IMG/VR virus record: IMGVR_UViG_3300048852_000106
Span: 1 to 50,220 of that record
Direction: 5' to 3' (one strand)
Source: a virus
Taxonomy: Duplodnaviria; Caudoviricetes
Length of the DNA: 50,220 nucleotides
The translations under genes and the position numbers were made by a program. Within the stretch, counting starts at the first letter, position 1; each line of letters opens with the position of its first letter. Below the pieces are notes generated by a model. It was given only the letters and a program-made list of their open reading frames with translations, ran no database searches and was not told the origin of the DNA. Shown here one piece after another: positions 25,310 through 47,718 of the stretch.

Positions 25310-25930
25310 TTACGCTTCCTCAGGATCCGCAACACCGTCTGAAACAAGCGCCGGCTTCTCTGCCGCTGCCTGTCGCGCCTTCCCTGCTGCTTTCGTCCGG
25401 ACCTTCCTGAACTGATCCCTCAGCAGGTGGAGCACATCGCGCTGCTCAATCTTGAACTCGCCCGCGATCGCGGTGGCGAACTCCGGGAGCGCGCCCTCAA
25501 AGACCCTCACCAGTTCCTCGGCAATCCGTGCCATCTCGCGCCGTGCACCGGCAGCCTCGATATAGCGGCCCTGGCGAGCCAGTTCCTCCTCAGCTTCGCG
25601 GCGGTTCACCCGGCGGATGCTTTCCAGCTTCTGGCGCCGGATTTCTTCTGTAATCTCGTCAGTCAGGTCCGGCTTTGAAGCGTCTTCCCGCTTAGCCGCA
25701 CGCGGCGTAAGTCGCGTCGCTAGACCGTTGCCGGTGGACTGGCCGATGTCCCTCCGGAGGCCAACCTGCCGCTGAGCAATCCCCGCGTTGATCTTCGCTG
25801 ATCGGCCTTCGCCAACGATTGCCTCGCCAGTGATCTTGCCTTCCGTGATCCACTGGGTGACACGCCCTGGGGAGACGTTGCACAGCTTCGCGAAGTCACC
25901 CTTCGAGACGATTTGGTTTGCCATCAACAT
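25310..25930 (-). CDS. Terminase small subunit (Nu1-like)
   Basis: N-terminal wHTH (SKGDFAKLCNVSPGRVTQW) plus coiled coil; upstream of TerL. Confidence 0.85.
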   Translation of the reverse strand: MLMANQIVSKGDFAKLCNVSPGRVTQWITEGKITGEAIVGEGRSAKINAGIAQRQVGLRRDIGQSTGNGLATRLTPRAAKREDASKPDLTDEITEEIRRQKLESIRRVNRREAEEELARQGRYIEAAGARREMARIAEELVRVFEGALPEFATAIAGEFKIEQRDVLHLLRDQFRKVRTKAAGKARQAAAEKPALVSDGVADPEEA

Positions 25931-25959
25931 TTGCCGACACCGGCCTTACCTCGATCTGA

Positions 25960-26090
25960 CTTTAGCTCGTGCGTTTAGCCCCTCGTCTTTAGGGCGCCAT
26001 CGGAACTAAAGAGCCGCTAAAATAAAGAACCCACGTGGCTCAAGGCTCAAATGCGCCCTACCGCCTCGTCCAATCGCTCGTTTTAGGCTT
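25960..26090. repeat. CTAAA/TTTAG repeat cluster, cosB-like candidate TerS binding sites
   Basis: About six TTTAG/CTAAA copies in both orientations between cosN and terS. Confidence 0.5.
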
Positions 26091-26118
26091 CGGAAAATCG
26101 GTCAAACTGGCCAAATCC

Positions 26119-26165
26119 CGGGCCGTTCTCCGCCCGCATTGAGGGGGGGGTGTTGCCAAGGACCC
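26119..26165 (-). other. Lambda-like cos site: cosQ GGGTCCT (26165-26159), 23 nt, then predicted 12-nt cohesive end GGGCGGAGAACG (26135-26124)
   Basis: cosQ is identical to lambda, the spacing equals lambda's and 9/12 bases match GGGCGGCGACCT. Confidence 0.8.
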
Positions 26166-26242
26166 ACACCGTTGCAGGCTTGCAACACTCGCGATGTCAC
26201 AGGGTCACATCGTGCCCCTCGCGTGCCCCCTCTGCCACACCC

Positions 26243-26815
26243 TCACTTGGCATCCAGGATGCGCAGGAGTTCGTGTCCGAGGCGGTTGGCGAGCTCGCTT
26301 TGAGCCACATCGTAGAAGGCTGCCTCGGTCGCGCCTGTCACCATCTCCTGAGGGATGACGACGCCGCTGTCGACGAGCTCGATGGGTGTGCGGGAAGCTG
26401 ACGTTCTGCGGAAGACGTGTCCGCCCATATTGAGCGGGACGCGGTTGGGTTTGCGCCCACCCTTAAGGAAGGCCATCGGGAAGGATGTGCGCTTGCCGAA
26501 GGGCTTGGCACTGACGCCGCCTCTGGCTTCTCGGGGTGAGAAGTACTTGAGGCTGATGTCTCCGCCTCGTGACCAGATCGTGTAGGAGAGGTCGCCGCGC
26601 TGGGCTGCCTTTCTGGTCTTCAGGGCTTTGACGATGGTCTTTCTCTTCAGGCCGGTTTGGGCTGTGAGAGACCTGATCATTGCCGTTCGTGCTTTGGCTC
26701 CGGTGTGGTTGAGAGCCCGTGCGATAGCAACGGGCGCTCTCTTACCGGCCGCTGCGATCTGGTTGCCGAGGCGCGAGATGTCGACGGTGTCGATTCTGAT
26801 CTGGAGCGCCATCAA
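26243..26815 (-). CDS. Lambda gpZ-like minor tail / neck protein
   Basis: AIARALNHT...GHVFRR...RTPI motif. Confidence 0.75.
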   Translation of the reverse strand: MMALQIRIDTVDISRLGNQIAAAGKRAPVAIARALNHTGAKARTAMIRSLTAQTGLKRKTIVKALKTRKAAQRGDLSYTIWSRGGDISLKYFSPREARGGVSAKPFGKRTSFPMAFLKGGRKPNRVPLNMGGHVFRRTSASRTPIELVDSGVVIPQEMVTGATEAAFYDVAQSELANRLGHELLRILDAK

Positions 26816-26839
26816 AACCTCGCGGAACCATAACCTTTA

Positions 26840-27240
26840 GACGTTGAGGCTAGCGGAGCCGTCGGTAGGTTCTCTCTGGTTTGGCTCGCCCTCGCCGCTT
26901 GGGGCGGCGGGTCGACCAGGTGAGAGGGTGATAGGTGCTGCCTATCTGCGCTACCGCTTGATGATTGGCAGAAGGAGTGTTGCCTGCTGCCAATCGGTTG
27001 GTCAATGGGGCGTCGCGTGGTGTTTGGAATTACCCTTACACCTGGATCGGACGGGACGGTTTGTTGCAAGCCCTTGAAGGATCTGGCTTTCCCGCTGCCG
27101 TGGCTGGCATCATGAACTATAAGCATGATGCTAGATTTAGTTGGCTCCGATCGATGGATGAGGCGTTGACAGCGATCGGGCGGTTGACCCGGCTATCGCT
27201 CATCTCGCGACGTTTCGTGGCCTGCTTGTGGCAGGCGATT
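26840..27240 (+). ncRNA. Candidate roughly 400-nt multi-domain structured RNA of unknown family
   Basis: More than 12 nested helices found by hand, with G-U wobbles consistently on the + strand; no convincing ORF. Confidence 0.55.
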
Positions 27241-27254
27241 CTTGTGCCGCTGGG

Positions 27255-27773
27255 CTATGCCCGGGCAAATTCACCGTGCTCTTGCCGAGCAACTTCCATA
27301 TAGGCAGCGTGCGCAACTTCAGGCGTATCGAATGTCCCAATGTGCCGCGCCTTGCCTCCAATACGGATTTGGGCTCGGTACCGCTGCGTCTGGCGGTCAA
27401 AGTACACGCCTTTCAGACCGACCGAATTGTTAGCTCTCACACCTGAGTTAGCCCGGTTCTGGGCATCAGTAGCGAGCCGGAGGTTGGCAAGACGATTGTC
27501 ATCACGATCGAGATTCACGTGATCGATCATCATCCCCTCAGGCACCGGTCCGTAGGCATAAGTCCACACCAGGCGATGTACCGGATGGCGATAACCGCCA
27601 ATTTTCACATATCGATATCCGCGGGGATGCACCGTTCCGGCGACTGTGCCCGCGTATTTCGTGTTCCAGTCCTTCGGCCTGTCAGGTCGAAGGCGCCATA
27701 AAAGAGGGCCGGTTGCCTCGTCAAAATCAAAAAGTAGGCGCAACAAATCCTGAGATGGCGATGGTTTCGTCAT
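27255..27773 (-). CDS. HNH endonuclease with C-terminal AP2 domain; start revised to ATG at 27773
   Basis: HRLVW...IDHVNLDRDDNRLANLR and GLKGV...YRAQI...IGTFDTPEVAHAAY...HGEFA. Confidence 0.92.
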   Translation of the reverse strand: MTKPSPSQDLLRLLFDFDEATGPLLWRLRPDRPKDWNTKYAGTVAGTVHPRGYRYVKIGGYRHPVHRLVWTYAYGPVPEGMMIDHVNLDRDDNRLANLRLATDAQNRANSGVRANNSVGLKGVYFDRQTQRYRAQIRIGGKARHIGTFDTPEVAHAAYMEVARQEHGEFARA

Positions 27774-27808
27774 CTGGCGCAATCCCCGGCTCAAGGTGTT
27801 CAAACTAT

Positions 27809-27958
27809 GCTGATGCGAGAGCTTCCATCCACCATGTTGCCCCGTGGCCTGCCGCGACATCGCTGACAGGTCTCCCTGCTCTCCCGAGCTTCCGACATGG
27901 TCGTGGCTATCCGCAGCCGGTTGCCACGCCTCCGCACCCATCGGTGCCTCGCATCAAC
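27809..27958 (-). ncRNA. Candidate roughly 150-nt structured RNA upstream of the HNH gene
   Basis: 11-bp closing stem and five inner helices, with GGGA and GAGA GNRA loops on the - strand. Confidence 0.55.
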
Positions 27959-28135
27959 CTCGGTTGTTCTCTTGGTTTGCCCCTGCCCTTGGTGTCGGCA
28001 TCTCTCTGCCGTGCTCTGTGGTCTAGGAGTCTGGGCATCGACACCATGAACAAATCGTAATGTTGGAATTTACCAGCTGTTCACTCGCTAGGGTGTCTCT
28101 GCGCGCCGGGGCTCAACTAAGAACAAGGATCACCT

Positions 28136-28396
28136 ATGACTTTTGGAAAGCTCGCGCTCGCTACTGTTGCTCTGGCTGGGTTTGTCAGCCTAAGCGGGCC
28201 TGCGCCACAGGCTCAACCTCTCGTCCGAATTCCGGAAATTGCATCCAAGTCCGATATCACCTACGCCCAGTATCGCCCTGACAATCGGCGCTTTGGGCGC
28301 CCTCGTAGAGAGTGCAAGTGGGATACGGTGACCAAGCGCGTCCGGGGCAGGATCGTAAAGGAACGTGTCCAGCGCTGCTGGACAGTCCGGCGCTAA
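28136..28396 (+). CDS. Small secreted basic protein (moron)
   Basis: Signal peptide, AAGGA RBS, two Cys, own terminator. Confidence 0.7.
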   Translation: MTFGKLALATVALAGFVSLSGPAPQAQPLVRIPEIASKSDITYAQYRPDNRRFGRPRRECKWDTVTKRVRGRIVKERVQRCWTVRR

Positions 28397-28401
28397 ACGA
28401 T

Positions 28402-28428
28402 AAGGGCTCTTCGGAGCCCTTTCTTTTT
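28402..28428 (+). terminator. Rho-independent terminator
   Basis: AAGGGCTC-TTCG-GAGCCCTT followed by TCTTTTT. Confidence 0.85.
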
Positions 28429-28476
28429 GCCTCAGTTCGGGTGAGGAAGCGGAGAAGGATGTCCATGCGATGAACC

Positions 28477-28809
28477 CTAATCGATACCCATCATTAGAAG
28501 CCCGAACCAAACCAGCTTGCAGAGGACGTGCATGGCTTGGTCCATGTTGTAACTCAGGCGGCCCGAGCACTTGGTCAAGTCGATCAGCGCATGAGCCACG
28601 AACTCTAGGCCAGCCAAGAGCCACGATCCGGTTGCCAGCATCACCGCGCCAGCGTGGATAGCGGCATGGCAGGCCAGAGCACCGGGCCAGATCACCTCAC
28701 CCGGCACGAGGCTCAGGGTCTGGTTCTTCGCCTTCGACAGCCAATCGCCTTGGAGCGGGTAGTCGGCAAGAGCGTGCCCGATCAACATCCAGGCGAGAGG
28801 AGCCAACAT
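28477..28809 (-). CDS. DUF3307-like membrane protein
   Basis: GHALADYPLQ...HAAIH...HALID...DQAMH His-rich motif; GAGGAG RBS. Confidence 0.85.
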   Translation of the reverse strand: MLAPLAWMLIGHALADYPLQGDWLSKAKNQTLSLVPGEVIWPGALACHAAIHAGAVMLATGSWLLAGLEFVAHALIDLTKCSGRLSYNMDQAMHVLCKLVWFGLLMMGID

Positions 28810-28827
28810 TCAGTCTCCTCAGAGGGC

Positions 28828-28939
28828 CGATGCAGGTCCGGCCTATCAGCTTACACCGGCCTTGCGGCCTACGGGTCTTTCGGGGGCACTGGATTGCCGG
28901 AGCTACTGGAGCCCCTTATTCACGCACTGCCCTGCATCG
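28828..28939 (-). ncRNA. Candidate roughly 110-nt structured RNA or leader
   Basis: 9-bp closing stem CGATGCAGG/CCTGCATCG, two hairpins with UCCAG loops, and GCAA and GUAA tetraloop hairpins. Confidence 0.5.
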
Positions 28940-28946
28940 AACTCGG

Positions 28947-29063
28947 TTAGCGAAGAAGCCCTAAGCACTCAGCGATGCTCTCTTCCACGTAGATGTGAGA
29001 GGCTATCTCTACCATCAGGCAGCCGTCATCGTCTCGGGTGTAGGCTCTGCGGGATGAGGGCAT
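28947..29063 (-). CDS. 38-aa hypothetical peptide (MPSSRRAYTRDDDGCLMVEIASHIYVEESIAECLGLLR)
   Basis: Hand translation; below the ORF-track cutoff. Confidence 0.35.
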   Translation of the reverse strand: MPSSRRAYTRDDDGCLMVEIASHIYVEESIAECLGLLR

Positions 29064-29070
29064 GAGGCCA

Positions 29071-29103
29071 AGAAAAAGCCCCGCGCTATCATCTCGCCGG
29101 GGC
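29071..29103 (-). terminator. Rho-independent terminator at the head of the late region
   Basis: GCCCCGGCG...CGCGGGGC followed by TTTTT on the - strand. Confidence 0.7.
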
Positions 29104-29627
29104 GCCTTCTAGACCAAGTGAGAAGGGTGGCCAGGTGCATAAGGCAAGGTTTGTGCTCGCCTCATGCTACGCAATCCGTCCCTAACTTTTGTCGTGACGG
29201 CTTGGGAGCTGGCCACGGCTTTGAATAGACCTGCACACGGACCGCGAGCATTCACGGGGTAGCACAGCCATCCAAGGCCAGCTTCCATATCGCGGCCACC
29301 TACGAACCCGTCAATACATGAATTCGGCGTAGGTTTCGCACTTGAGAGGACAGCGGCCGCAATCCATACGTTTCGCGACCATGGCAAAATTGATGCCTCA
29401 AACCGGGGCCAGTGTCACCACCCTAAATTTCCCTTTTAGAATCATGCTTATAGCTGACCAGTTGCAAAGCAATGGCAAAAATATTTGCAACTGGATGAGC
29501 TTAGATGCAAAAGGCAGAGCCGATAAAGCTGTAAGGGTGATGCAACTTTTTCCTGTTTGAGCACTACTCATGGACGTTGTCAAACTGAATGCCACAGAGG
29601 CCGATGCAACGATTGAGCGGAGTCTTG

Positions 29628-31211
29628 TTAGTGCGAGGCCTGCGAAGGACGGCGCTCAGCGACGTTTTCCTTATAGGTCGTGTTGCAGTAAGGGTGGGTA
29701 ACCTGAGCATTGCCGGAATGCGCGCCACCTCCGTCCGCTTTTCGCTCAATATGATCGGTAGTCATCGAGTTCCGATGTAGCAGGCCGTCACATATACCGC
29801 AGCGTGTGCCGCTCTGAACAAGCTCGTTTATGAACGCAGCCGACTTGGTGCTAGCGCTAAAATTCCGCTTTCCGCTGCTAGCTTCTCGTATCGGTGCTGG
29901 TGTTGCAAAAAAGCGGAAGCGGTTGTCGGTCGACATTCCTGCGATGATTTCATCATCACTCTTTCCCATCCATAATCCTTCTAAAGCGATGGTCATGAAA
30001 TCTTCTAGCGCAGGTCGACTGCGGTGACCCGCACCTAGGTTTTTGACAATGAGGGTGAACGCCTCTTTGTGTGACACCAGGAAGTCCTCGAACGATCGAC
30101 GGACGCGAGTGAACTCGTCCAATTGCCCTTTGTCAGCGAGCTTCTGGACGACCTGAATAACAGCGAGAAATGCCACCGGCTGGAAAGCGCCGCCGCGTGT
30201 GTAGAAGTACACTAGGGGATGGAGGCCAAGCGACCCGGCGAATGTGGTAGTTATCCGCTCCAATCGCTTCTGCGCAGCCTGCAAGAATTGTAGGGTTTTC
30301 ACCCCGTCGTGATCGACTACTAGCGGGTCTTTCGGGCCGATGCCGTTTACTAGGTTCACAAAATCGAAAACGAACGGAAGGGAGCTATATCCACGTCCGC
30401 CGACGGGCACGTCGGAGCTTTTGATCGGCGAATCTCCCATCGGAGGCAGGTAGAGGGCATCGTAAATAGACTTGCCGCCTTTCTCGATCTGCTGCTGTAT
30501 TTCGCCCGCAAACTCGGACCAATATTTGTGACCAGCGCCCGCACGGTTGATAGCGCGAGTTGCAATTGCAGCAGCTGAGCGTCGTCCTCTTAGAATGCGT
30601 TTCTCAATTGGATCGACAGGTGTCGGGGCTTGGTTGATCTTGAAGAATGAATTTTCCGCGCCGAGTGCATCGCCTGCAGGAACCCATTGAGCGACGAACG
30701 AATTGGAGTTCATCATTCCAACACGTTCCTTGATTTTCTCGTTTGCGTACTGAGTTTTGCTGGAATCTACGTAGGACGCATACGTGCCAATGTTGGTATC
30801 CACGAGTTTCCTAGTCTGCTCAGCCAGCTTCTTCTGTTCCTCCGGCACCTGATTTTCAAAGTAATTGATCGACCGGGATTTGTCGCCGTAGTCGTCATAT
30901 ATCCACGCCAGCAACGCGCTCACACGGTGCGCGCCGTCGATCACAAATACGTACTGGCCAGAGCGCCAAAGGATGATTGCAGGGATAAGATCGCCATCCA
31001 GAAATGCGGCGATCAAATCGACGATCTTCTGTGGGGTCCAGTTGCTAGTCTCACGCTGGAAATCAGGCTTTCTGAGGCTCTGGGCGAAGAAATCCTCTCT
31101 AAGCATGCCCATACCAATGGTGCCAATGGGAGTCCCCTTGTAGGGAGTCGTGGGCGCGGCAAAGTCCTCACGCGGGATTAGCGCATCCAGATTAACGCCG
31201 TTCGCGGCCAT
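29628..31211 (-). CDS. DUF262 (GmrS/ParB-like) plus C-terminal HNH nuclease; GmrSD-like defence candidate; start revised to ATG at 31211
   Basis: PDFQR...W...IPAIILW...VIDGAHR and CGIC...DHI...GG...N...H..CN; GGAG RBS; AT-richer. Confidence 0.85.
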   Translation of the reverse strand: MAANGVNLDALIPREDFAAPTTPYKGTPIGTIGMGMLREDFFAQSLRKPDFQRETSNWTPQKIVDLIAAFLDGDLIPAIILWRSGQYVFVIDGAHRVSALLAWIYDDYGDKSRSINYFENQVPEEQKKLAEQTRKLVDTNIGTYASYVDSSKTQYANEKIKERVGMMNSNSFVAQWVPAGDALGAENSFFKINQAPTPVDPIEKRILRGRRSAAAIATRAINRAGAGHKYWSEFAGEIQQQIEKGGKSIYDALYLPPMGDSPIKSSDVPVGGRGYSSLPFVFDFVNLVNGIGPKDPLVVDHDGVKTLQFLQAAQKRLERITTTFAGSLGLHPLVYFYTRGGAFQPVAFLAVIQVVQKLADKGQLDEFTRVRRSFEDFLVSHKEAFTLIVKNLGAGHRSRPALEDFMTIALEGLWMGKSDDEIIAGMSTDNRFRFFATPAPIREASSGKRNFSASTKSAAFINELVQSGTRCGICDGLLHRNSMTTDHIERKADGGGAHSGNAQVTHPYCNTTYKENVAERRPSQASH

Positions 31212-31414
31212 GGTATCAATCTCCCCGAAGCTATATTTGAAATGAAACATAGCTCAGGCCCTCCCTCTCGGGAAGCGGGTACGCTTGGTATAGTAACGCC
31301 ATAGGATCGCCCTATCCAAAATCCTTTCCAACTGAACGGTTGGCGGCGTCTCTCATCCCCGGCTCTCCTGGTCTGTGGTGAGGCGGGCGGCCTTGCGATT
31401 AGGTTGCTGGTAGT

Positions 31415-32167
31415 TCAGCGCACGGTCACGTGCGCGCGGTGGAGCTGCTCGGCGAGGTATGCGAGGCCGGCGGGCAGGTAGCGATCGAGGGAGGTCCGGC
31501 TGAGGATCTTCTCCGGCAGTGCCTGCCAGGGCAGAATGAGCGGCGCTCGTATGGCTTGGATCTGGTCCTTGATCTCCTGCCCTCGGCGATTGATCTCCGG
31601 ATCAAATTCCCCACTGGCCTTCAGATCATGCGCACGGACCAGGAGCGCCCTCGCCTCCTCGATCAGGGGAGCCTTAGCACGCTGGTGCTCGGCGGCCGCC
31701 ATTCGGGCGGCCATCGCCTTCGCTTTGACGTTCCGCTCCCGCAGCACCCCGGCGATCGAGAATCCGCCCGCCTTGCACATGGCCCAGAGCAGGACCGCGT
31801 CGCAGGCCATCGGCTCGTGAGAGGCGTACATCATCGGCCAGGCCAGAGCCTCATCGGACATGCTGATCTCTTCGGCCGTCGGGCGCCGCAGGTTCTCAGC
31901 GAAGGCTTCGCGGGCCGCCTTCATGGCCTGCTCGTCAATCAGGTCCGAGAACTCCCTCAAGGCCGTCGGCCAGCCGCCGCCGTACGCTGATGGAGCGATC
32001 CTGCCGGTGGTGGCCATCAGCACGTCGAAGGCGTGGATGAGCCTGTGGGCGACGTGGCCTGCGTTCCACAGAGGCGGGACCTCATAGGGCCCTTCCTGCT
32101 CGTCGCAGCGTGACAGGTCGCGTGACAACTCATCATCTGCCCGTGATAAATCGTGCGTATAATTCAC
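31415..32167 (-). CDS. Putative late transcription regulator (Q-position, DUF6362-like)
   Basis: W...VAHRLIHAFDVL...GGWP...PTAEEISMSDEALAW pattern; last gene of the early-right operon. Confidence 0.55.
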   Translation of the reverse strand: MNYTHDLSRADDELSRDLSRCDEQEGPYEVPPLWNAGHVAHRLIHAFDVLMATTGRIAPSAYGGGWPTALREFSDLIDEQAMKAAREAFAENLRRPTAEEISMSDEALAWPMMYASHEPMACDAVLLWAMCKAGGFSIAGVLRERNVKAKAMAARMAAAEHQRAKAPLIEEARALLVRAHDLKASGEFDPEINRRGQEIKDQIQAIRAPLILPWQALPEKILSRTSLDRYLPAGLAYLAEQLHRAHVTVR

Positions 32168-38945: not shown

Positions 38946-39356
38946 TCAGTCCGCCAGATCGTCCACGAGCTCGCCATCTGCCTTGCGCCGCTCATCGGCA
39001 TCAACGGCAGCCTTGCCCAGCGGAAGGTCTGCATAGTCTCCAAGCGCCTCACGGATGAGCACAGCCTGATCGGCGTCATCTGCCTCAAGCTCGGAGCGCA
39101 GCTCTTCGATCTTGTGAGCCAGCTTACGGGCCTTCAGCTCGACCTTCAGAGGCTTCAGCGGGATTCCGCGTGCCTTCGCCTCGGTCATGACGCCCTTGCG
39201 ATCCTCGGCGAGGTCGCGGCACCGCTTCATGAACTTGCCGCGCTCTGATGCAAGCGTGGCGTCCAGCTCGTCCAGGCGGCCTACGATGTCCTGAAGCACG
39301 TCAGGATCAAAGCCATTTGATACAGGTTGAGCAGCTTTCCGCTTGCCACGGGGCAT
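38946..39356 (-). CDS. GapR/DUF2312-like DNA-binding protein
   Basis: LQDIVGRLDEL...EDRKGVMTEAKARG...LK...Y...LPLG. Confidence 0.65.
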   Translation of the reverse strand: MPRGKRKAAQPVSNGFDPDVLQDIVGRLDELDATLASERGKFMKRCRDLAEDRKGVMTEAKARGIPLKPLKVELKARKLAHKIEELRSELEADDADQAVLIREALGDYADLPLGKAAVDADERRKADGELVDDLAD

Positions 39357-46754: not shown

Positions 46755-47718
46755 GCAGCCAGTTCGTCAATCCAAATCGGTTGCGCGCCTTGGGAGGAGC
46801 AAGGCTCGGCGGCGTCGGACGATCCTTGAACCCGTGGGGATCAAGGAATACGCCCACAAGCGATGGAATGACCAAAGCTGCGAAGGTCGCCACGGCTAGT
46901 ACGACCAGAGTCCACTCCACTGGAGGTCCACCTTTCCGAGACAGCGGCGGATACCCACGCCTCGTCGATAGAGTGCGGTGGCGTGGCTTCCAAGTGATTA
47001 ACGCGGGAACGAACGGATGAGTGGCATGATCCCCAAAGACGGTTATCGCCCCTACCCCGCGTGGTTTCTCTACTTCGCAGCCGCATGCTTTGTGCTGGCT
47101 ATAGCCGTCCTGACACACTGAGGTGCGCCCGTGGTCAAAGCTCAATCAAATGCGAAAAGGGCCGCTGCCCAGACAGCGACCCTCTCTCCGAAAGCCAAGG
47201 ACAAGATGGGGCAATGCATCGGCCTTCGGTCAGGTCGTTCTAAGCCGACATGCTTAACGAGACCTTACCGACGGGACATCCGGCCATGAGCAGGCAACAA
47301 AAAGGGCTGCCGTTTCCAGCAGCCCGAAGGTGGGGCCTCAGCCCTTCCAGAGGGAACGACGCGAGCGGGAGGTATGATCGCGTCTTCCCTGAGATGGTGA
47401 GGCCATCCCAAGCCTGTCACCTCTTCCAATACCAAGCTGGCATGCACCAAGCGCAGCCGTTCGGCCTTGAAACCGCCACGCTCACTTCCAGACAGAAGGT
47501 AGCCTGCTCATGACGGAGAGGACTAGACAGCAAAGAAAAAGGCCACCCTTGCGAGCGGCCCGAAGTTTAGGGAGGAAACGCCCAAGAAGGGCGACCGCCG
47601 CAACGCGACGGGATGCGTGCCTTCTATCTCCGACTTTGGTCGAAGGCCAGCGCTCCCGGGTCACGTGGCGTATGCGCTCAGCGCATTGCATAGCCGCCGG
47701 TGCAATCGAGGTTCGCTG

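Follow-up and report, generated by a model that had tools for sequence, protein, structure and literature searches.

What occupies the roughly 400 nt between the variable cargo and the first conserved late gene of a temperate alphaproteobacterial phage, and does this interval act as an RNA? The phage comes from a soil virus record, of which the whole stretch of 50,220 nt analysed here is called the window; it carries an integrase, RecT/YqaJ, a primase-helicase, a lambda-like head and a Mu-like contractile tail, its late genes occupy the minus strand, and its proteins find their nearest named matches on replicons of Microvirga and Bradyrhizobium (40-46% identity at the protein level). An earlier note on this DNA had proposed a large structured RNA at 26840..27240, transcribed antisense to the late operon. 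Our comparisons indicate that the element is a real and rare structured RNA candidate of no catalogued family, and that it is likely an undescribed motif, placed where a late operon probably under Q control begins and most likely carried by its sense strand; we infer a function for it below.

Extent and conservation of the element

The proposed interval does hold a conserved block, albeit a slightly larger one that spans 26818 to about 27240-27250. Blastn blocks run from 26818 to 27225-27252 in five homologues, from which the whole element is delimited as a predicted late-sense RNA of about 430 nt (26818..27245, minus strand); a sixth full-length homologue, L221, was added through a pattern scan and matches with an nhmmer E of 6e-106. 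The 5' boundary is sharp, lying at a stable hairpin, and is preceded by unrelated sequence in each copy. Compared with 100 dinucleotide shuffles of 26818-27245, the predicted folds of both strands proved better than chance (minus, -150.2 kcal/mol and z -6.70; plus, -178.1 kcal/mol and z -3.51), and eight control windows of 430 nt elsewhere in the phage gave z values of +0.3 to -2.35. Two open reading frames cross the interval, one on the minus strand that overlaps the gpZ start (26812-27126, 104 aa) and one on the plus strand (26965-27303, 112 aa); both carry stops or frameshifts in the five homologues inspected and neither matches Pfam, so the statement that there is no credible ORF here stands. 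The 104-aa frame is not conserved among these five homologues, and a protein-coding reading was ruled out.

Rfam 15 yielded no family match to the element at gathering level, at E <= 10 on 25800-29700, or on L221, in agreement with the earlier remark that the element could not be assigned to a family; the OLE covariance model was equally without a match at these levels. Membership of GOLLD (which we take to be RF02032) or ROOL, to which the note had alluded, is contradicted by the lack of any model match and of tRNA genes, the window containing no tRNA or tmRNA gene. Several other classes were considered and set aside. Group I introns follow the order P3-P4-P6-P7-P3'-P8-P7' with a bulged, G-binding P7, and by eye the only GAC/GUC helix found here has no bulge and closes a domain instead of crossing; a group II intron or GII-derived motif, recognisable by a domain 5 with an AGC triad, has as its look-alike GAGCC...GGUUC at 26856, which is not conserved; neither class has an Rfam match. 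For tmRNA, RNase P, known riboswitches, and HDV-like and hammerhead ribozymes there is no Rfam or ARAGORN match, and the motif order, judged by eye against consensus sequences, does not correspond.

The copy set comprises the window and six full-length IMG/VR homologues (seven close copies), to which two distant copies, L229 and L231, are added to make nine; the family is rare, and its members are all drawn from records of uncultured viruses. Scanning IMG/VR with gpZ produced 20 loci, five of them with the element directly upstream of gpZ, and 75 of the best 80 gpZ loci have no copy; locus L003 is without the element and yet has a gpZ that is 88% identical. One metagenome pattern scan gave 34 stretches, of which the single true one is identical to the contig of L001, and further viral pattern scans returned only the same five records plus chance matches. 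Blastn against GenBank phages and plasmids revealed no new copies, and against 401 genomes of the order of genome G001 it gave 12 matches, all within gpZ; a gpZ scan of genome contigs found nine loci, none with the element. A first model (R1) recovered no distant copy of domain A, matching the window only among 99 sources and nothing among 151 class-level genomes. A second model (R2) gave one weak match in the 151 genomes, overlapping the end of a secretion gene. It gave another, without the tetraloop, when applied to 40 genomes out of the 45 that have a DUF6362-like match; both were judged chance. The exact core pattern was absent from 401 + 401 genomes. These genome searches are samples in which few candidates were scored per genome. 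The literature search found no account of the motif, although a sub-domain may be among the models of PMC10690425.

Conservation is nonetheless pronounced where the element occurs, identity being 0.79 in domain A and 0.89 in the 3' half as against 0.67 at the four-fold sites of the adjacent gpZ, and invariant columns amounting to 152 of 196 as against 31 of 84 at those sites. The covariation expected among homologues was also found: two-sided compensatory changes affect 17 of 88 pairs in the close copies, compared with 7.9 in shuffles (none of 500 reaching 17) and 2-4 in slid controls. Since the shuffle control ignores relatedness, and the 88-pair structure (96% of cells paired) was assembled from consensus folds of the same sequences, we take this result as support and not as a probability. 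Fifteen of the 17 compensatory pairs fall in the 5' hairpin H0 and domain A.

Architecture and strand of the predicted RNA

Read on the minus strand, the predicted RNA begins with hairpin H0 (27220..27236; GCCUGC/GCAGGC, 6 pairs, with a U-A/C-G swap in 3 of 7 copies) and an invariant ACGAAAC linker, which lead into domain A (27011..27212), a multibranch structure closed by CGUCGC/GCGACG that is recognisable only in the seven close copies; its components are a GGUGU/ACACC hairpin, a three-way junction built on GAUCGG/CCGAUC and one long arm of variable sequence. Within it, a GUCAA motif (27166..27170, minus strand, invariant in 7/7) forms the 5' side of a candidate long-range or pseudoknot pairing with UUGAC at 27001-27005; this pairing competes with a local stem, and shows no covariation because the motifs never vary. 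The two motifs lie 156 nt apart in the distant L229, a spacing similar to that of the close copies, and L231 is without the pairing.

The conserved core of about 80 nt (26938..27005, minus strand) is present in all nine copies; those of L229 and L231 (nhmmer E 1.3e-6 and 0.008) are likewise found on this strand, immediately ahead of gpZ-like genes. Its consensus, UUGAC...ACUCCUU-YUGCC...GC-GNNA-GC...GGCAR with an inner RUC:GAY stem, is represented in the window by UUGAC, ACUCCUU (26972-26978, invariant in 9/9 copies), the pairing CUGCC:GGCAG (26967-26971/26938-26942), an inner AUC:GAU and a GC-GGUA-GC loop (26952-26955). The CUGCC strand can also pair backwards into an alternative hairpin, B1 (26963-26995, minus strand), and these mutually exclusive helices both show covariation, with 3 of 10 pairs compensatory and 97.8% of cells paired across nine copies for the core in its forward form, and 4 of 18 pairs compensatory and 87% paired for B1. 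Both the window and L229 have hairpin B1, in which ACUCCUU is half-paired, as their form of lowest energy, whereas B1 is poor in L231; the predicted deficit in stability of the forward helix relative to B1 is about 12 kcal/mol for the core of the window, about 4 for L229 and about 3 for L231.

A 3' arm follows (26872..26926, minus strand), with CUCUC/GAGAG around CGCCGC/GCGGCG, an invariant GGCGAGCCA and one C-G/G-C swap in 3 of 7 copies, and then a 3' tail (26812..26852, minus strand) whose AGCCUC is able to pair with the gpZ Shine-Dalgarno sequence GAGG (26818-26821) and the start region, the alignment fold giving AGCCUC:GAGGYU. This helix appears in 3 of 6 full-length folds and 4 of 6 local folds, is not part of the window's own fold and has two broken pairs in L221. 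The Shine-Dalgarno sequence is predicted to be paired in 6/6, the probability of being unpaired not exceeding 0.11 for 22 of the 24 positions; a GC-rich Shine-Dalgarno sequence pairs easily by chance. No promoter or terminator of the element's own was seen. A kissing interaction through a palindromic AAUU loop was considered and dropped, GAAA being found there in L221.

Measured against this architecture, the stems proposed in the earlier note lie at or within one base of where they had been placed, and a good part of them persists: TAGCG/CGCTA, GCCGC/GCGGC, GATTGGCAG/CTGCCAATC, GACGTT/GGCGTC, GATCGGA/TCCGATC and GCCTGC/GCAGGC are kept in 6/6 sequences with at most one broken pair. The stem GAGGCGTTG/CGACGTTTC is weakened to 5-7 of 9 pairs in three homologues, while GAGCC/GGCTC (3-4 of 5 pairs), GCCCTC/GAGGGT (3-5 of 6), GATAGG/CCTATC (1 of 6 in L004, 4 of 6 in L001 and L002) and AGCGAT/ATCGCT in the register proposed (2-4 of 6) are not maintained in homologues. 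Several domain-1 helices of that model are therefore specific to the window; the tally leaves out CTGGCATCATG.

The RNA very probably lies on the late-sense, or minus, strand, contrary to the antisense orientation first suggested. The z value is lower on this strand in 9/9 copies (one a near tie), a difference that is partly compositional since 5 of 8 control windows lean the same way; the structure conservation index is 1.21 on minus and 1.06 on plus; the core loops read as G-N-N-A or G-A-A in 9/9 copies on minus, with a GAAA tetraloop in L221, compared with UACC, UGAC or UUUC on plus; and the candidate late promoter described below points in the same direction. The argument that G-U pairs mark plus as the folded strand does hold for wobble counts in the single sequence, but is not confirmed once homologues and context are brought in. 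It would imply that the RNA is read from plus, in the orientation opposite to the late message, a quite unlikely alternative that can appeal to the plus-strand z of -3.5, to 15 compensatory pairs out of 127, and to an excess of A-C over G-U on minus among internal 1x1 mismatches (6 to 1) and helix flanks (45 to 24); a first neutral tally was even, at 19:19. One B1 pair is likewise A-C on minus, and hence G-U on plus, in 6/9 copies, and G-C or A-U in the others. Neutrally chosen helices, however, have 9 G-U columns against 5 A-C on minus, the B1 anomaly vanishes if the forward helix forms, and the plus strand shows no promoter-like site and no U tract after its last hairpin.

Genomic setting and the candidate late promoter

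The element is flanked by an HNH-AP2 endonuclease gene on its 5' side (27255..27941, minus strand; PF13392, PF00847; probable start nearer 27782) and by the gpZ-like tail completion/Neck1 gene on its 3' side (26243..26812, minus strand; PF06763 E 3.4e-5, phrog_27 E 5e-31), which is the first conserved late gene and is followed by a cos-like block and terminase genes. The cargo slot 5' of the element holds a different gene in each homologue, and a link to the HNH-AP2 gene, or to an intron carrying it, was rejected on that ground. A small gene family of about 90-130 aa recurs in the slot between promoter and gpZ (L001:2119-2460, L005:168-431, L232:8582-8968), and the same slot of the RNA-less relative contains what is presumably a HigB/HigA-like toxin-antitoxin pair by its sequence features (L003:1316-1901). 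On the 3' side, the gene for the gpZ-like protein lies before cos, far from the head-tail genes, in the window (26243-26812) and L002-L006, and it is 86-95% identical among these records while the terminase module swaps among three types.

The earlier note had placed the RNA just upstream of gpZ and cos; three unrelated types of terminase module follow gpZ among the homologues, which ties the element to the late promoter and gpZ and not to cos or terminase, and a packaging RNA attached to terminase or cos was discarded for the same reason. The candidate cos itself, a conserved block between gpZ and the terminase small subunit (26104..26165) with matches in L001-L006 and the L117 record, occurs also in phages without the RNA. 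These observations bear equally on the notion of a DNA-level site, for protein binding or for single-stranded packaging or replication, or of a coding remnant. A protein might bind the core at its two TTGAC repeats, which are separated by about 12 bp, and covariation cannot separate RNA from single-stranded DNA; yet the reading frames are not conserved, the element stays while the terminase modules differ, the cos-like block occurs alone, the G-N-N-A loops and wobble-tolerant stems fit an RNA, and neither terminal repeats nor extra copies of the element appeared in the host genomes searched, all of which makes such a site very improbable.

Upstream on the same strand lies a site that we interpret, from its sequence pattern and by analogy with lambda pR' and Bartonella BaGTA, as a candidate late promoter (29378..29418, minus strand), composed of GTGACA (29413-29418), a 17-bp spacer, CATCAA (29390-29395) and the NANNNT element CATGGT (29378-29383). 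Across loci the layout is GTGACA-17-CATNNA-type hexamer with NANNNT six bases later; GTGACA and the spacing are conserved in 10/10 aligned loci, and the lambdoid Q/pR' arrangement of a sigma-70 promoter with a promoter-proximal -10-like element is present as a sequence pattern in 9 of these 10, NANNNT occupying the same slot. The promoter is found upstream on the element's minus strand in 8 of 9 copies, at 122 nt from the core in L231, where promoter, core and gpZ start fall within about 300 nt, and at 766-3543 nt, with cargo genes intervening, in the other seven. A GC-rich hairpin with a U tract, read from sequence at 29074..29103 (minus strand), is a candidate tR'-like terminator in the stretch that separates this promoter from the element; it is 29/30 identical in L003 and absent from the terminator scan. 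An inverted repeat, AGTTGCAAA...TTTGCAACT, about 40-70 bp 5' of the -35 hexamer (29378-29510, minus strand), is kept in the close clade as a candidate regulator site.

Further upstream is the gene for a DUF6362-related protein of 250 aa (31415..32167, minus strand), which is possibly a Q-type antiterminator, perhaps of an undescribed family: 12 of its 16 homologues match DUF6362, the best of them with E 5.8e-6, and its language-model (Atlas) neighbours are DUF6362, antitermination Q and DUF1133 at 0.90-0.92, with a recognition score of 2106 that lies below the threshold of 2300. No PDB sequence or fold match was obtained, the fold searches giving only generic helices, and the literature search returned no paper mentioning DUF6362. 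The gene is present in five of the six full-length homologue records, the sixth being a 38% fragment, and is absent from the L003 and L117 records. It co-occurs with the element in 8 of 9 records (the ninth being that fragment), although for L229 and L231, which were found through this gene, the co-occurrence is given by construction. A scan with the protein produced 13 loci, seven with the RNA or core and six without the core, and L232 and L233 have both promoter and gene with the core absent. Related genes occur in 45 of 301 genomes of G001's family. Between the DUF6362 gene and the promoter of the window is inserted a 540-aa GmrSD-N + HNH protein (29628-31250, minus strand), likely anti-phage cargo.

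Proposed function and its alternatives

Our favoured reading, to which we would give a probability of roughly 0.4, is that the element is a multi-domain leader of the late transcript which, by switching between folds, controls translation of the first late gene. In 8 of 9 copies it immediately precedes a gene of one class, gpZ-like; this placement, its two exclusive covarying helices and a tail that could mask the Shine-Dalgarno sequence together point to a cis-acting, two-state leader. A Q-like protein would antiterminate at the late promoter, and under this proposal the RNA would consequently be made late in lytic growth. With CUGCC paired backwards, hairpin B1 would bury ACUCCUU; with CUGCC paired forwards to GGCAG, ACUCCUU would be exposed and the G-N-N-A hairpin presented. 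A protein might pick between these states and so set access to the ribosome-binding site in the 3' tail, the simplest candidate being the basic gpZ product itself (33 K+R, 13 D+E) or else a host factor, and domain A may be a clade-specific scaffold added to the core. Tail completion proteins are low-copy in the virion, and a two-state leader could serve to limit translation of such a product at the head of the strongest transcript. Against gating by a gpZ leader stand the absence of the Shine-Dalgarno-covering helix from the window fold, the lower predicted stability of the forward helix, the weak Q identity, the Q-like loci without the core (6/13) and the many top-ranking gpZ loci (75/80) that, like L003, do without the element. 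L221, moreover, keeps the whole RNA with GAAG in place of GAGG and another gene following, no gpZ lying within 600 nt downstream, from which it follows that gpZ cannot be the sole partner.

The alternatives, in decreasing order of probability, are a free RNA, a put- or nut-like signal, the antisense RNA and the DNA site. The first, a stable non-coding RNA cut from the late transcript in the manner of GOLLD and ROOL and with a tertiary or oligomeric fold of its own, is doubtful and yet the main rival: the sharp 5' boundary with unrelated sequence upstream in every copy, the intact copy of L221 without gpZ and the variable promoter distance (122 to 3543 nt) would all suit it, and a tertiary structure is suggested by the G-N-N-A loops, the candidate pseudoknot and the unpaired stretches that do not vary. 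Its exposed ACUCCUU might then serve host or phage mRNAs as a decoy of the anti-Shine-Dalgarno kind, a role for which the window offers just four AAGGAG sites close to a start codon, none of them singled out. The 3' end speaks against release, having no conserved terminator and including, in all but one of the seven close copies, the site where ribosomes would bind for gpZ, as does the loss of the palindromic AAUU loop in L221. Expression of GOLLD rises in lysis, and GOLLD and ROOL form RNA-only cages (10.1101/2024.12.08.627333); ROOL has a mean length of 581 nt (PMC5737381) and GOLLD often exceeds 800 nt, both often lying beside tRNA genes (10.1101/2024.12.08.627333, PMC5737381). The present element is like them in being multi-junction, phage-borne, dispensable among relatives and endowed with a candidate pseudoknot, and like GOLLD in that its 3' part is conserved and its 5' part less so; unlike them it has no Rfam match, is shorter (about 430 nt with an 80-nt core), belongs to no tRNA island, abuts a ribosome-binding site and is known from nine copies.

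A nascent-RNA signal of the put or nut kind, reinforcing read-through into the 25-kb structural operon, seems unlikely. It would accord with the co-occurrence of the DUF6362 gene and of the promoter motif in 8/9 each, and the succession of a pyrimidine-rich box and a G-N-N-A hairpin resembles the boxA-boxB order; however, the distance to the promoter reaches 3.5 kb, a terminator-like site precedes the RNA, and L232 and L233 carry promoter and gene without the core. Antitermination by put is factor-independent and works through contact with the beta-prime subunit of RNA polymerase. The put sites of HK022 comprise about 70 nt, fold into two stem-loops and lie in early transcripts, no more than about 270 nt from the promoter (PMC9378689). 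Like them, our element is a structured RNA that a lambdoid transcript carries ahead of a long operon, but at 430 nt, late, and 0.1-3.5 kb from its promoter (766-3543 nt in 7 of 8 loci, 122 in one) it does not fit put in size or distance, and membership was rejected. Another parallel is the Q-type control, with long leader, sigma-70 promoter and NANNNT, described for the alphaproteobacterial Bartonella BaGTA P_bgtA-K/BrrG in a lambda pR' layout (10.1101/2024.11.20.624540). Like that leader and the lambdoid pR'-Q system, the present locus combines a candidate sigma-70 promoter and NANNNT, a terminator-like site, unconserved cargo and an upstream Q-like gene, the Q identity here being a weak lead; what is described for the BaGTA leader is a terminator and not a large covarying RNA (10.1101/2024.11.20.624540).

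The conserved CU-rich run complementary to AAGGAG further recalls the alphaproteobacterial anti-Shine-Dalgarno sRNAs AbcR, MmgR and alpha-r, from which the element differs in being much longer and in having neither a promoter or terminator of its own nor an Rfam match; an mmgR/suhB small RNA was in fact found elsewhere in the window, near the integrase (47525-47599, minus strand; RF00519, 67.8 bits). The candidates of Fremin et al. 2023 (PMC10690425) derive from the same source database and include motifs directly upstream of structural genes, but they measure 30-151 nt, and in the part of the supplements that was searched two motifs and three contig names were unmatched.

ACUCCUU resembles the anti-Shine-Dalgarno tail of 16S rRNA, and control of lambdoid late genes is attributed mainly to the protein antiterminator at the promoter. 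A more ambitious formulation, which we consider rather improbable as a whole, would define a new RNA class, pseudoknotted and two-state, of 430 nt with an 80-nt core, bearing an anti-Shine-Dalgarno mimic beside a G-N-N-A hairpin. Such an RNA would originate in Q-type late transcription and then either act as a switch on late translation or, once released, capture the ribosome-binding sites of host mRNAs in lysis. A large covarying RNA in this position would place an additional, RNA-based tier of control before the structural operon, or else be a further ornate phage RNA beside GOLLD and ROOL. The natural series formed by the 430-nt form, the distant form and the promoter-core-gene arrangement of about 300 nt supplies ready compensatory variants and a minimal construct, which makes function directly testable.

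Two further observations concern the phage at large. Its early region encodes a protein with a GapR-like DNA-binding domain (38946-39356, minus strand), and in the DNA run X1, the one that contains this phage, the element and gpZ (window 26699-27222) occur a second time in a diverged copy.
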